Below, one piece after another: positions 4,857 to 27,506 of a stretch of DNA of 64,000 bases. The position numbers were made by a program, and so were the translations under genes. The DNA is from Symsagittifera roscoffensis (Eukaryota). The notes beneath the pieces are model-generated. The model ran no database searches and was not told where the DNA came from. It saw nothing but the letters and a program-made list of their open reading frames with translations. The stretch is from positions 46,113,437 through 46,177,436 of the forward strand of contig NC_087064.1 in assembly GCF_963678635.1 (NCBI RefSeq), read 5' to 3'. Within the stretch, counting starts at the first letter, position 1, and each line of letters opens with the position of its first letter.

Positions 4857-5740
4857 TGTAACATTCGTCTACTGCAGTCACACATGAGGCTTAAGAAAAA
4901 TAGGCCCTATAACCACTGGCTCAAGGGTCAGGGACACCATCTCTTGTGTTTTTCTACCTCAAGAACGGTCGGAGCCAGTTCGGTTCGTTTGTGACATGAG
5001 ACTACGACCCGTTACAGCTTAAAGGCTACTACTAAAATATCCCCCCACTCTAGAATTAGAAACGTCCCCATACTTAGGTCTCTAGATACCCAAAATACAT
5101 GAACGCCGTTAAAAACCGGGTTGGAACAATCCGTTAAGTTACTTTTTATTAGACAGTGTAACTTTGATCCATTTCAGATGGATCAACCTAAAACTCGCCT
5201 TACCTCAACATAACAATTATAAAACACACTCTAGAAATTTAAATTAGTACTCACATTGTAGCACACTCAAGAAGGGGAAGTACTTCAGTCGGTAATTAAC
5301 TCAAGAATTAAATAATGTAACTAAATGAGTTTTAATGTTTATCAGTTTCAATAACGAGGACAAGTCTTAACTCTAGGATATAGTTTCTCCTAAACCATTG
5401 GGACACTCAAGTTGTCCACCTTTCCGTCGAAGGTTCACTCTGGTCCAGCTCAAATAATCGTTCTCTCGGGAATACTCTGTCTTCTATTTCAGATGGGACA
5501 GCTCTACTCTTGTTCACTATGATGGAAATTGCGAATAGCAATTTCCTACCGATTTCTCTTGCAACTTTCCCGCGTTTTTCACTCGAACGTTCTGACTTCT
5601 CTTTTCTGATTTTCAGTTATCGCGAGAAAATCGTGCATGACAGGTTCCATTCGAAATTTAGAAAAATTAAATTTCACTCCAAAATCAAGTGTTTTTTGCT
5701 TCTCTCAAGGTCAAACTTCCGAATATGACCGACTGGCACA
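4857..5740 (-). repeat. Copy 1 3' LTR (884 bp; TGTAACATTCG...GACTGGCACA on the + strand)
   Basis: Direct repeat of 26623-27506. Confidence 0.9.
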
Positions 5741-5752
5741 TACTCCCCGGAC
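5741..5752 (-). promoter_or_regulatory. Candidate polypurine tract of copy 1 (minus-strand GTCCGGGGAGTA immediately 5' of the 3' LTR)
   Basis: The same 12-mer tactccccggac also abuts the 3' LTR of copy 2 at 27907-27918 even though the two LTR bodies differ. Confidence 0.5.
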
Positions 5753-6169
5753 TCGAGATCGATGTCCTCATCGCGTGCTGTCTTCTGCCAGTGAGTCCCA
5801 GAAAACCGAGTGTTACTCAAGATACAGTGCCAGTGGTCATTTACAGAAGTTTGCAGCAGACTTAAGCTTATCTACACCCCAAAATTCACAGCCATGTAAA
5901 ATTTTCACACTATCGCTAAACAGCAATCAAAATCTGCACACACCTGCACCCTTGAATTCTTGCTTTCCAAGCCAATCATTTAAAATTTCTTTTGTCCTAT
6001 TCAATCAGGAAATTGTCATGCAGCATTTTGATTCATATAATAAATATAGTATATTAATAACAATATTTGCTTTGTTAAAACTTCTTTTTCGTGAATCCAA
6101 GTTTCACCCGGATCCACGCTCAAGCCCCCTTTCCCCTCTCAAGACTCAAGATCCATACGAGCCACCCAC

Positions 6170-8773
6170 TCATCTCGCACTCTTCGCCTTGGAGGTACTA
6201 CACCCTGAAGTACTAGATACGGCAAACTGTCTCAACAGCTCCTCTTCATCATCGGAGCTAATCACAATCTCCTCCCAAGCCTTCAGCTGCTCGTAGGATC
6301 GCATCCATTCTCTTTGCTCTTGCAACCTCTTTGCTTGGTTGGGTAGTGCCTTCACCCTAGATTCCCGGTTCAAACAAAAGGAGTTGTGCAGGCTCAAGCT
6401 CACGTTCTTCGCCAGGTCCTCCTCTAGTATCGATTCCCTCGCCTTGGTATTGTCTCTAGACATTTTACCCACTCTCTTCCATCCTGTCGTGATTGCATTA
6501 CGATGGGTTAACAGGGGTCTCTTGAAAGCTTCCGGCCCAATCTCGGCCTGGAACTGTCGATACTCCTTTTGATGTTTTCTCATGTGATCTTTCGTTGTCA
6601 TGTACAACCAGGACGTCAGCGTCGCCCGAAACCATGGGAAGTACCTCAAACGGCTCCAGACATGTCTGACTTCCGTTGGTATGGCGAATACCTTGCACGC
6701 AGTCTCAAACAACTCGAGTCTCCTACTGTAGTCTATCGCGTATATTGACTCTGCCGTTGGCGTCCCCGCTTCCCGATACTTCGTTATATTCTCTTCTATC
6801 CATCTCAGAGCCAAGATCGTACTCACTACCAAGATCGTCACCTTCTGTCGGTGATCCGGTAGTCCGATCGACCGGATTTCTTCCATATCCCACACCAGGC
6901 AAAGGTTCTTGTGATCTGGATACCACACCGTTTGCGCTAAACAGTGGCATGGGCATTCTCCATGGGTGATTTCAATGCTCCTGAGGTTACGCTCCCCCGA
7001 GGCTTCCAAGAGAGGCTCAAGCTCCATCATTTTCTCATGCATCGTGTCGTTATCTTCCAGGTTTGGAGCACTTCCCACAGGTTTTCCGATCACGTTTTGT
7101 CTCTCGTGATCGCTTGTGTTCTCTCTCTCCAACTTCAAAAGTTCTTCTCCCCAGATTTCACTCAAGTCATCTCTCAATTCTTTTGGTACTGTCCCTCTGA
7201 TTTTTCTCAACAACTTGTGCGAGTGATGCGATATCCGAGCCAACCTCACGCACTTGGGCACTGAGAAGGCCTTGTCCACCAGTACTCTCTGGCTGGATGC
7301 TTCCACCATCACCATGTGCAGTGGGTAGTGACTTCCGCACAAGTTGGCCATCATTGACCCTATCAGCGATTTCGCGTTCAATGGCAAGCCATAAGCTTCG
7401 CTCATGGGAAATCCCATTTCCGCCTCGAGACCAACCTTCCAGCTCCGGATGTGTTTTTGAGTCACCTGCAACACCCCGGGCCATGATTCTACGCTCAACG
7501 CCGTCACTAAATGATGTTCAGATTCTAGTCTTTCCAGTGACTGCAGACTACACATTCTCGAGAAGAATCCGAGAGCTGTCGCTATATTCACCATGGTTCT
7601 CGCGTAACACTCCGCTACTATTTGCACTTCACTTTTCTCCCTTTCTGTTATGTCTTCGAACCAAGTGACCAGGTCTTCTTTTTGAAATGACAGTATTCTA
7701 ACGCATGACCGTCCATCGCAGGTGTGCTCTCCGTTTCCACACGTCGAATCCAGACAGCTACCCGGCTCCAATTTCTTTGCTGACCCGGGATTACTAGTCT
7801 TTTCGCCTGGCTCTTGCATCTGAGGTGAAATTAGCTTATGCAGCACACTCAACTTTGCCAGATCTTCATCTTCCGTTGGTGCTAACCTCACTCGCTCGGT
7901 GGTTTCTTCGATCAGACTCGCGTGGGGATGTGGACACCAGGAGGGTCTTAATAGCTTCCATACCACTCCCAAGTTCGTGGTTAACAAGCCATTTCCATCG
8001 CCCATGTTCACTTCAACTCTCTTGTTTGAATGCGGTATGCTCACCACCTCTGGTGTTTTCTCAAGAATCAGGCCCAGGCTCGGCCCCTCTGTTTCCACCG
8101 CGTCTATTTCCATCATTCTTTCTGTCCAAAACTTCAGTAGCTCCGCTACCTCATGGTTCCTGTGGGCGCCTCCAGCTTCCGAGTCTAAGAAGGGGTTGTA
8201 GGCCATTCCCATCACTCCAGACACATATTGGTATTCCCCCTTCTCGCTGATTCTCGAGTACTGCTCTGACGAGGCCAGGTTACGGTGAACATCATGTTCT
8301 TCTTCGAACTTCTTATTATAAAACCTCCGTACCTCGTCTAGCTTCCTATGGTTCTGTAGGGATAGTCTGGAACCCTCTTCCTTTTCTATTCCTGTGCTCT
8401 GATACACGTTCAAGATGACCGTTGAGACTCTTTTTTCCATGGTTTTGCTTACGCTTGCTCTCTGTTGGCATGCCAGGATGGTGCTATCAGACATCATCGA
8501 CCTTATCCATCTCAAGAAACACGTGGCATCCTTTCTTCTGGCCAGGCTCAAGCCTGAGTTGTCCCTGGCTACGTGTTGCATCAGTGCCTGATACACATCT
8601 AGCTTCTTGCTTCCCAACTTCAGCCTGTCATACGAGGTCAGTGTTTCCAACTCTATCCCCACCAGACTCCAGGTGAACATTAATTGTCCTGCAGTTCTAA
8701 CGAAGGGATTCGCCATTAATGGTGGTGCTGATGAGGGTGTCCTCATTGCTTCTTCAAAATGATCCTTCAACAA
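6170..8773 (-). CDS. ORF3 C-terminal segment (867 codons) of copy 1; function unknown
   Basis: Long open frame. Its N-terminal, middle and C-terminal parts recur in copy 3 (62867-63467) and its last about 220 aa in copy 2 (28652-29323). It is separated from the upstream 1607-codon segment only by one in-frame TAG at 8780-8782, where copy 3 has a TGG (Trp) codon. Confidence 0.75.
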   Translation of the reverse strand: MLKDHFEEAMRTPSSAPPLMANPFVRTAGQLMFTWSLVGIELETLTSYDRLKLGSKKLDVYQALMQHVARDNSGLSLARRKDATCFLRWIRSMMSDSTILACQQRASVSKTMEKRVSTVILNVYQSTGIEKEEGSRLSLQNHRKLDEVRRFYNKKFEEEHDVHRNLASSEQYSRISEKGEYQYVSGVMGMAYNPFLDSEAGGAHRNHEVAELLKFWTERMMEIDAVETEGPSLGLILEKTPEVVSIPHSNKRVEVNMGDGNGLLTTNLGVVWKLLRPSWCPHPHASLIEETTERVRLAPTEDEDLAKLSVLHKLISPQMQEPGEKTSNPGSAKKLEPGSCLDSTCGNGEHTCDGRSCVRILSFQKEDLVTWFEDITEREKSEVQIVAECYARTMVNIATALGFFSRMCSLQSLERLESEHHLVTALSVESWPGVLQVTQKHIRSWKVGLEAEMGFPMSEAYGLPLNAKSLIGSMMANLCGSHYPLHMVMVEASSQRVLVDKAFSVPKCVRLARISHHSHKLLRKIRGTVPKELRDDLSEIWGEELLKLERENTSDHERQNVIGKPVGSAPNLEDNDTMHEKMMELEPLLEASGERNLRSIEITHGECPCHCLAQTVWYPDHKNLCLVWDMEEIRSIGLPDHRQKVTILVVSTILALRWIEENITKYREAGTPTAESIYAIDYSRRLELFETACKVFAIPTEVRHVWSRLRYFPWFRATLTSWLYMTTKDHMRKHQKEYRQFQAEIGPEAFKRPLLTHRNAITTGWKRVGKMSRDNTKARESILEEDLAKNVSLSLHNSFCLNRESRVKALPNQAKRLQEQREWMRSYEQLKAWEEIVISSDDEEELLRQFAVSSTSGCSTSKAKSAR

Positions 8774-26597: not shown

Positions 26598-26611
26598 ACC
26601 CAGGAGCGCCA
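26598..26611 (-). promoter_or_regulatory. Primer-binding-site candidate of copy 1 (minus-strand TGGCGCTCCTGGGT, 11 nt internal to the 5' LTR)
   Basis: Begins TGG as expected for a site complementary to a tRNA ...CCA 3' end. The same motif occurs at the equivalent place in copy 2 (38621-38634) and copy 3 (46246-46260). Confidence 0.5.
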
Positions 26612-26622
26612 TAAAAACACTA

Positions 26623-27506
26623 TGTAACATTCGTCTACTGCAGTCACACATGAGGCTTAAGAAAAATAGGCCCTATAACCACTGGCTCAAGGGTCAGGGA
26701 CACCATCTCTTGTGTTTTTCTACCTCAAGAACGGTCGGAGCCAGTTCGGTTCGTTTGTGACATGAGACTACGACCCGTTACAGCTTAAAGGCTACTACTA
26801 AAATATCCCCCCACTCTAGAATTAGAAACGTCCCCATACTTAGGTCTCTAGATACCCAAAATACATGAACGCCGTTAAAAACCGGGTTGGAACAATCCGT
26901 TAAGTTACTTTTTATTAGACAGTGTAACTTTGATCCATTTCAGATGGATCAACCTAAAACTCGCCTTACCTCAACATAACAGTTATAAAACACACTCTAG
27001 AAATTTAAATTAGTACTCACATTGTAGCACACTCAAGAAGGGGAAGTACTTCAGTCGGTAATTAACTCAAGAATTAAATAATGTAACTAAATGAGTTTTA
27101 ATGTTTATCAGTTTCAATAACGAGGACAAGTCTTAACTCTAGGATATAGTTTCTCGTGAACCATTGGGACACTCAAGTTGTCCACCTTTCCGTCGAAGGT
27201 TCACTCTGGTCCAGCTCAAATAATCGTTCTCTCGGGAATACTCTGTCTTCTATTTCAGATGGGACAGCTCTACTCTTGTTCACTATGATGGAAATTGCGA
27301 ATAGCAATTTCCTACCGATTTCTCTTGCAACTTTCCCGCGTTTTTCACTCGAACGTTCTGACTTCTCTTTTCTGATTTTCAGTTATCGCGAGAAAATCGT
27401 GCATGACAGGTTCCATTCGAAATTTAGAAAAATTAAATTTCACTCCAAAATCAAGTGTTTTTTGCTTCTCTCAAGGTCAAACTTCCGAATATGACCGACT
27501 GGCACA
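26623..27506 (-). repeat. Copy 1 5' LTR (884 bp)
   Basis: Direct repeat of 4857-5740. Confidence 0.9.

Follow-up and report, generated by a model that had tools for sequence, protein, structure and literature searches.

We report a genuine giant Ty3/Gypsy-type long terminal repeat (LTR) retrotransposon, here called E1, which occupies 22.65 kb of the minus strand (4857-27506) within a 64,000-nucleotide stretch of the Symsagittifera roscoffensis genome (contig NC_087064.1, forward-strand positions 46,113,437 to 46,177,436; hereafter the window). Its gag-pol gene is followed by a second very long open reading frame, ORF3, which selection maintains as an integral gene in a clade comprising three to five subfamilies or more. 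E1 itself is a young, recently inserted but defective member of an abundant giant Ty3/Gypsy family. We consider it highly probable that these elements are best explained as giant two-ORF Gypsy retrotransposons with an integral, selected ORF3, which would replicate broadly as outlined below.

Self-comparison of the window bears out the pair of 884-bp LTRs that an earlier, sequence-only reading of this DNA had placed at the ends of 4857-27506, although the two repeats differ at 3 positions (99.66% identity) and not at the 4-5 given there. Because all coding signal between the LTRs sits on the minus strand, the repeat at 26623-27506 is the 5′ LTR. The LTRs end in TG...CA and a short target duplication lies on both sides, as expected of an LTR retrotransposon. 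A site near 39130, 98.5-99% identical to both flanks of E1, reads CCCGT-AAT-ATTC with a single AAT and therefore proves the proposed 3-bp AAT duplication. This site had been described as an empty paralogous site; it is uninterrupted and holds one AAT, but it is in fact the second LTR of copy 2, a related, older element in which E1 is nested. Both E1 (AAT) and copy 2 (GCC) made 3-bp duplications, which are shorter than the 4-6 bp usual for Ty3/Gypsy elements. A primer-binding site (PBS)-like sequence beginning with TGGCGC follows the 5′ LTR and a polypurine tract (PPT)-like sequence places the purine motif GGGGAG directly at the 3′ LTR; copy 2 shares both of them, in agreement with the PBS and PPT named earlier. 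Likewise, the leader and the pol-ORF3 spacer, previously put at 2.26 kb and 540 bp, measure 2,259 and 539 bp. Rfam and tRNA scans of the window gave no matches.

Along one frame of gag-pol, Pfam matches fall in the order zf-CCHC, Asp_protease, RVT_1, RT_RNaseH_2, Integrase_H2C2 and rve, which is the gag(CCHC)-protease (PR)-reverse transcriptase (RT)-RNase H-integrase (IN) order of Ty3/Gypsy elements. The two CCHC knuckles, DTG, YVDD, RNase H, HHCC and DDE signatures recognised in the sequence-only reading could all be located by Pfam or motif reading. As a ranking of similarity only, the best match of the E1 RT in the PDB is the Ty3 RT (4ol8, E 1e-25), with weaker matches to a caulimovirus (8r0s, E 3.5e-14) and to retroviruses (E at least 8e-5). 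The gene is oversized, with ~2,935 codons in a single frame and without a programmed frameshift, and long additional segments precede the capsid, separate PR from RT and RNase H from IN, and follow IN. In the PR-RT interval, Pfam gave a weak match of herpesvirus-dUTPase type (E 0.0065), and no dUTPase was found among PDB matches at E ≤ 0.01.

ORF3 is ancestrally a frame of 2,959 codons but is present in E1 as pieces of 370 (15080-13971), ~90, 1,640 (13702-8783) and 869 (8779-6173) codons. Alignment with L001, a 94-97% identical paralog, places two 1-bp deletions at ~13978 and ~13656, on either side of the first half of an esterase domain, and a single in-frame TAG (8780-8782), a TGG>TAG change, parts the 1,640- and 869-codon pieces. 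Insertion of one base per deletion gives a single 2,959-codon frame from the ATG at 15047 with the TAG still inside it, and a paralogous protein, P0004, is uninterrupted for 2,168 amino acids across the same junction. The earlier description of a single huge ORF3 running from 15047 down to 6170 is correct for the ancestral frame after repair, but the frame is broken in E1. Open runs as long as 1,640 and 869 codons greatly exceed what chance would give. The examined copies each carry a different ORF3 lesion: L001 lacks, at its position 14977, 987 bp of ORF3 that are present in E1 (E1 element positions 18511-19498), and a second paralog, L002, has an internal tandem duplication within the C-terminal region.

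Three further lesions lie in the gag-pol of E1, namely a 19-bp deletion at ~23585 (relative to L001) that cuts the first 266 codons off the rest, and in-frame TAG codons at 20072-20074 and 18521-18523; L002 keeps 2,544 gag-pol codons open. Given that lesions affect gag-pol as well as ORF3, six in all, E1 is a dead copy despite its near-identical LTRs. Both pol TAG codons are TGG in L001 and L002, and the ORF3 TAG corresponds to Trp in P0004. The stops are therefore mutations, and an alternative code with TAG as a sense codon was rejected. All three premature stops in E1 are TAG. Sense-strand changes specific to E1 in pol comprise 23 G>A against 10 C>T, a mild excess after correction for base composition that could reflect cytidine-deaminase editing of minus-strand cDNA, or chance.

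The order pol-ORF3-LTR is common to E1, copy 2, copy 3 (a third relative in the window), L001 and L002, which represent at least three subfamilies with different LTRs, and further ORF3 subfamilies occur at 30-45% identity. L001 and L002 lie on other contigs of a single ENA assembly, and in both pol is followed by ORF3 and then an LTR. Copy 3 is collinear with E1 through gag-pol, the ORF3 N-terminal piece and a large downstream frame, with 54-86% amino-acid identity to the end of the window. Copy 2 retains the N-terminal domain, the coiled coil and the first esterase half, followed by the last ~230 residues, which is an internal deletion of ~2,170 middle codons and not an absence of ORF3; P0334, a longer product of copy-2 type encoded at another place in the genome, contains the whole esterase, the D2 domain described below and a longer C-terminal region. 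The synteny formerly claimed for copies 2 and 3 therefore holds as regards order, but copy 2 is without those ~2,170 codons and copy 3 is heavily degraded and runs off the window. Copies without ORF3, or with ORF3 bounded by its own termini, which the sequence-only reading had named as the mark of an independent insertion, were not seen among the five, and no direct or inverted repeats were found flanking ORF3 inside E1.

To these observations can be added the pattern of substitution. Ratios of nonsynonymous to synonymous divergence (dN/dS) for ORF3 segments were 0.10-0.26 against L001 and 0.04-0.16 against copy 3, compared with 0.09-0.27 and 0.03-0.10, respectively, for pol segments; ORF3 is under purifying selection similar to that on pol. 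Identity also varies in mosaic fashion: between E1 and L002 it is 93% in pol and 77-83% in ORF3, and dS between E1 and L001 is 0.04 in RT-IN and 0.09-0.31 in ORF3. Such a mosaic is expected from template switching between co-packaged full-length RNAs and, as judged from these alignments, would imply recombination between subfamilies of whole genomes that include ORF3. Together the shared order, the lack of flanking repeats, the dN/dS values and the mosaic show that ORF3 is integral to the lineage, and the family feature proposed earlier is upheld by its same position in five copies, its lack of own termini and its purifying selection.

The N-terminal domain of ORF3 is followed by a segment (residues ~147-238) that looks like a coiled coil, and then by a domain, D1, with the features of a canonical SGNH/GDSL esterase. 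Lipase_GDSL_2 matched D1 in the paralogs P0002, P0004, P0334 and P0240 (E ~1e-7) and was the only Pfam family found within ORF3 across all ORF pieces and paralogs. In the PDB, a D1 profile matched 2hsj (E 4e-7) and the esterase of ZfL2-1 ORF1p (4c1b, E 0.028), and also touched a sialate O-acetylesterase more weakly than 2hsj. The S, G, N, D and H residues are invariant in all four aligned D1 sequences (three subfamilies, 33% identity). SGNH blocks I, II, III and V are intact downstream of pol in the family, whereas in E1 the GxND block (III) is cut by the frameshift. By these sequence signatures D1 is an SGNH esterase. Beyond a Pro/Ser-rich linker lies D2, with the motifs IVAGSDF, AGMNDHL, SPGY, APNR and DDH. 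An AlphaFold2 model of D2 built from a 13-sequence alignment had a predicted template-modelling score (pTM) of 0.53, and a Foldseek search with it agreed weakly with an SGNH-like fold and reached 4c1b, while hhalign placed the D2 Ser and GxND on their D1 counterparts at non-significant probability. D2 is a probable second, divergent SGNH-like domain. At the other end of the protein, the last ~230 residues are kept in copy 2, and the C-terminal region of E1 ORF3 is 44% identical to that of copy 2.

The architecture of the N-terminal third raises the matter of its origin. One account, compatible with ORF3 being an integral gene, is that this third was captured from the ORF1 of an esterase-type long interspersed nuclear element (LINE) and that the rest was added later. 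The nest of elements in the window sits in a LINE whose ORF1 encodes a GDSL esterase, a coiled coil with an esterase is the architecture of ZfL2-1 ORF1p, which the D1 profile touches, and the GDSL modules of rotifers are common to LINEs, Penelope-like and LTR elements. However, D1 and the esterase of the neighbouring LINE share only 23% identity (124 amino acids, E 0.016), and among solved structures D1 comes closest to a bacterial PAF-acetylhydrolase-like protein, not to a LINE esterase. We view capture from a LINE as possible, with the balance somewhat against it.

The 2,959-codon frame might also be a decayed fusion, with active elements encoding a separate ORF3, ORF4 and so on instead of one protein. 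No complete ORF3 product was found, and many called products stop after the esterase, at ~520-630 amino acids. Their ends are scattered, however, with no one conserved stop, and a consistent short ORF3 ending after the esterase was rejected for this reason. In addition, P0004 runs without interruption from the coiled coil to the middle region, D1 and D2 included, and the two long open stretches of E1 share one frame parted only by the TGG>TAG change. A set of separate proteins is thus improbable in our judgement, and we retain a single ancestral ORF3.

Given its position downstream of pol, as for env in errantiviruses, ORF3 could instead be an envelope-type gene, which would make the element an infectious endogenous retrovirus or errantivirus. 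A splice-acceptor-like site lies upstream of ORF3, and the nearest SGNH structural matches include sialate O-acetylesterases, the enzyme class of viral haemagglutinin-esterases. By hydropathy scan, however, ORF3 has neither an N-terminal signal peptide nor a C-terminal anchor, as env-bearing Gypsy elements would, and its 2,959 residues include no more than two 19-residue windows of moderate hydrophobicity (1.77 and 1.87). Pfam and PDB searches gave no fusion-glycoprotein family, and a BFVD fold search returned only weak phage SGNH matches. With signal peptide and transmembrane anchor absent, ORF3 is not env-like, and we hold an envelope function to be very improbable. Least credible of all is an ORF3 that is a nested transposon or captured host gene and not the retrotransposon's own, for although ~9 kb of extra coding sequence is very unusual in an LTR element and most of ORF3 is without retroelement-type domains, the gene keeps its place between pol and LTR in five copies, drawn from at least three subfamilies whose LTRs differ, has no terminal repeats or target duplication around it, is under purifying selection equal to that on pol, and has relatives that all belong to the same repeat family.

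A further domain is fused to the C-terminus of pol. Phmmer searches of the PDB matched it to OARD1/TARG1-type macro domains (2l8r, 4j5q and 2eee, E ~1e-5), with residues 21-148 of a 151-residue chain aligned, so that the similarity spans the whole domain. Its dN/dS against copy 3 is 0.057, indicating strong constraint.

These data allow us to propose how an element of this kind would replicate. From its anatomy, E1 would produce an LTR-to-LTR genomic RNA of ~21.8 kb, as in an ordinary LTR retroelement, with reverse transcription primed at the PBS and PPT and an integrase making the 3-bp target duplication. ORF3 would be expressed either through reinitiation or from a subgenomic RNA, probably a spliced one; a splice-acceptor-like site, TCTGTTTTCAG, lies in the spacer of E1 as a candidate, and a similar one lies in that of copy 2. 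The product would be a cytoplasmic, multimeric accessory protein and not an envelope. By analogy with CR1/L2 LINE ORF1p, the coiled coil and an active SGNH esterase would multimerise and bind or hydrolyse membrane lipids, and ORF3 would thereby take the particle or ribonucleoprotein to membranes. The second SGNH-like domain and the ~2,000 orphan residues might, as a guess, add scaffold or host-interaction functions, and the pol macro domain might bind or remove ADP-ribose, as viral macrodomains do against PARP-type defence. This specific mechanism for ORF3 (its expression, esterase or membrane role, extra modules and the action of the macro domain) is an analogy-based proposal that we put forward tentatively and would not expect to hold in every part.

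Several observations weigh against the overall interpretation or parts of it. No fully intact ORF3 was present among the copies examined, each of which has lesions, and the longest ORF3 product found has 2,271 amino acids. Some 2,000 residues of ORF3 gave no Pfam or PDB match, profiles included, and an AlphaFold2 model of an 870-residue ORF3 core gave no confident fold (pLDDT, the per-residue model confidence, of 28). Confidence in the D2 model is also low (pLDDT 58), and the comparison of D2 and D1 profiles is not significant. A scan of the leader gave no convincing splice donor. Finally, the positions of the residues that we take to be catalytic in TARG1, Lys84 and Asp125, align with Arg and Gly in E1; from this alignment the macro domain may bind ADP-ribose instead of hydrolysing it.

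The distribution of relatives was evaluated by three word-indexed protein searches covering all of ORF3 and by an exhaustive HMMER search against 1.84 billion representatives. All matches in the word-indexed searches were ENA proteins. The best 150 of 1,190 HMMER matches all look in-family, and 20 of 20 that were looked up were ENA-only and on large contigs; the remaining matches probably include generic SGNH proteins. Both copies that were traced to a record, L001 and L002, belong to ENA sample ERZ25071366. Relatives range from 30% to 99% identity, in clusters of up to 974 members, and 501 protein clusters match the N-terminal part of ORF3 alone. Scans of JGI metagenome contigs and of IMG/VR yielded no relatives, and for ~2,000 ORF3 residues no relative was detected outside one ENA assembly.

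Coordinates of E1 and its neighbours are collected in Table 1. The order of nesting is a LINE, then copy 2, then E1. The interrupted LINE is CR1/L2-like and lies on the plus strand (3253-4370 and 39530-42901). The LTRs of copy 2 and E1 share their TGTA...CACA ends, and copy 2 has the same PBS and PPT next to its LTRs. Copy 3 has a 2.7-kb tandem duplication of the PR-RT region (47886-53267, 93.7% identity), a duplicated ORF3 segment (60571-61123 and 63446-63998) and a 5′ LTR of ~2.3 kb (43931-46234), with ~1.4 kb extra relative to the E1 LTR. At 356-1331 of the window, both strands have short ORFs (plus strand: 723-953 and 957-1331) that resemble the C-terminal part of another non-LTR RT. The motif TCTTGRG has a strong strand bias in E1, with 58 sense and 6 antisense occurrences, and clusters in a 26-copy leader array and in a 4-copy array just upstream of ORF3. 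In copy 3 an equivalent array (26-bp x3.7, 56946-57040) precedes ORF3, and none was found in the copy 2 spacer. The TCTTGRG array may be a regulatory or binding-site array.

Table 1. Features of E1 and of neighbouring elements in the 64,000-nucleotide window (positions of the window)
Feature	Position	Strand	Details
5′ LTR of E1	26623-27506	-	884 bp; TGTGCC...GTTACA in element orientation
PBS-like TGGCGCTCCTGGGTG	26597-26611	-	11 nt downstream of 5′ LTR; same sequence beside copy 2 5′ LTR
Leader	24364-26622	-	2,259 bp; 13-14-bp x26 array (24725-25076), 70-bp x2.6 array (25968-26148)
gag-pol	15587-24363	-	Ancestrally one ORF of ~2,935 codons; ATG 24363
CCHC knuckles (two)	22460-22501 and 22304-22345	-	Motif
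PR DTG	21404-21430	-	Motif
RT YVDD	19943-19972	-	Motif
RNase H	~19484	-	Motif
IN HHCC	17771-17899	-	Motif
IN D,D,E	17396-17710	-	Motif
OARD1/TARG1-like macro domain	15590-15988	-	Fused to pol C-terminus; phmmer against PDB
pol-ORF3 spacer	15048-15586	-	539 bp; acceptor-like TCTGTTTTCAG at ~15300-15310; 20-bp x3.9 array (15084-15161)
ORF3	6170-15047	-	Ancestrally 2,959 codons; ATG 15047, TGA 6170-6172
ORF3 N-terminal domain, residues 1-135	14643-15047	-	tblastn, 37% identity to copy 2; kept in copy 2
ORF3 charged helical, predicted coiled-coil segment, residues ~147-238	14330-14610	-	By inspection of sequence
ORF3 D1, canonical SGNH/GDSL esterase by sequence	13343-13815	-	Pfam Lipase_GDSL_2 on paralogs
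D1 blocks		-	GDS 13786-13815; G 13723-13749; GxND 13628-13654; DGIH 13343-13372
ORF3 D2, probable SGNH-like domain	11783-12622	-	AGSDF 12512-12544; AGMNDHL 12359-12391; DDH 11900-11923
ORF3 middle region	8783-11782	-	Mostly helical conserved part, then acidic low-complexity linker with basic KTRKRKR (9263-9295)
ORF3 C-terminal 869 residues	6173-8779	-	Cys/His-rich motifs 7703-7756 and 6932-6964
PPT-like CCGGGGAGTA	5741-5750	-	Abuts 3′ LTR; same motif abuts copy 2 3′ LTR
3′ LTR of E1	4857-5740	-	884 bp
Target-site duplication AAT	4854-4856 and 27507-27509		Flanks compared with uninterrupted paralogous site at ~39130
Copy 2	4371-39529	-	Older related LTR element; 10.7-kb internal region; E1 nested in its 3′ LTR
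Copy 2 3′ LTR	4371-4856 and 27510-27906	-	883-bp repeat split by E1
Copy 2 5′ LTR	38647-39529	-	Second copy of 883-bp repeat
Copy 2 pol	31310-37695	-	
Copy 2 shortened ORF3	28652-30840	-	
Copy 2 target duplication GCC	4368-4370 and 39530-39532		3 bp
Copy 3	43931-64000	+	Diverged, degraded relative; gag-pol-ORF3 order; runs off window
LINE ORF1 GDSL esterase	3253-3855	+	Pfam E 4.5e-6
LINE ORF1 zinc-finger/PHD-like part	4005-4490	+	
LINE ORF2, EEP endonuclease and RT	40259-42901	+	

For a long time, LTR retrotransposons were believed not to exceed about 10 kb or to carry more than gag, pol and, in some cases, env. In the E1 family the coding load is doubled to ~17.7 kb in two ORFs, yet its members form hundreds of protein clusters in one genome. 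This spread shows that a genomic RNA of ~21.8 kb can be packaged and reverse transcribed. A stronger proposal, that the family is a new grade of retroelement with a virus-like capability absent from known Gypsy elements, seems to us unlikely. If it were true, the ~3,000-residue second polyprotein, equal in size to gag-pol, lacking relatives beyond this genome and joining tandem esterases to modules of unknown kind, could provide, for example, envelope-free membrane penetration, or cell-to-cell or germline transfer, and the macro domain on pol would serve in counter-defence.

A close architectural parallel is found in bdelloid rotifers, where LTR elements from the clades Vesta and Juno carry a GDSL-esterase ORF3 (Rodriguez, Kenefick & Arkhipova 2017, PMC5408684). 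As in the E1 family, ORF3 follows pol and encodes an SGNH/GDSL esterase with intact catalytic blocks, and not env. Unlike the bdelloid type, the esterase is only ~7% of a 2,959-residue ORF3 in an element of ~22.65 kb, and the protein further contains a domain at its N-terminus, a coiled coil and a second SGNH-like domain, with ~2,000 of its residues being orphans; the likeness described here is one of architecture. Arkhipova and colleagues have suggested that GDSL ORF3s, in rotifer LTR elements as well as in Terminons, have a membrane role (PMC5408684, PMC6431247).

A similar arrangement of a coiled coil followed by an SGNH esterase is seen in ZfL2-1 ORF1p (PDB 4c1b), whose coiled coil dimerises and whose esterase, an active enzyme, binds liposomes as well as acidic phospholipids (Schneider et al. 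2013, PMC3905857); its authors proposed Gag-like membrane targeting. ZfL2-1 ORF1p, however, is small and stands in for Gag in a LINE, whereas in E1 the module opens a giant accessory protein alongside Gag, and sequence similarity between the two is marginal. ORF3, the huge extra frame of the sequence-only reading, is not wholly anonymous, since its coiled coil and SGNH esterase are a module already known from retroelements. The E1 family joins a small set of unrelated SGNH-bearing retroelements that includes LINEs, Penelope-like elements, Ngaro and rotifer LTR elements, and this recurrence adds weight to the view that lipid or membrane chemistry is important for retrotransposition.

In size, the E1 family can be compared with Burro and GYPSM1 of planarians, giant Gypsy-like elements of which Burro exceeds 30 kb (Grohme et al. 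2018, as reviewed in PMC6431247). Burro, in the account given by that review, resembles the E1 family in being of Gypsy type with an internal region of more than 20 kb and thousands of extra codons. It is described there as having BIR, MATH, ankyrin, BCL2-like and env-like domains in one polyprotein of ~4,900 residues, whereas the excess in E1 is a separate downstream ORF, and no Pfam match to any of these domains was found in E1 gag-pol or ORF3. The ~9 kb of extra coding sequence, judged far beyond env-type additions from the letters alone, is indeed unusual in size, but it is precedented by Burro and the Terminons. Ogre and Retand elements of plants are also very long Gypsy elements with extra ORFs of unknown function; Ogre, however, has LTRs of 2-6.5 kb and an internal region of 11-13 kb, compared with 884 bp and 20.9 kb in E1.

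Macro domains have been noted before in ORFs of fish epsilon-like endogenous retroviruses (Basta et al. 2009, as cited in PMC4977317). As far as that citation describes them, these are likewise retroelements with a macro domain, but that of E1 is of OARD1/TARG1 type and lies in-frame on a Gypsy pol C-terminus. Relative to fish retroviral and viral macrodomains, the catalytic residues of E1 appear to be substituted, if the TARG1 sites are as we take them to be. No report of a comparable element was found in a literature search, whose scope did not include Repbase. Four features of the E1 family are new: ORF3 is a separate, selected gene equal in length to gag-pol; its SGNH-type domains stand in tandem, the second of them predicted by modelling; a very large part of it is orphan; and the Gypsy pol carries a fused macro domain. 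This macro domain and the 2,000 orphan residues offer concrete targets for the discovery of new element-host interactions.

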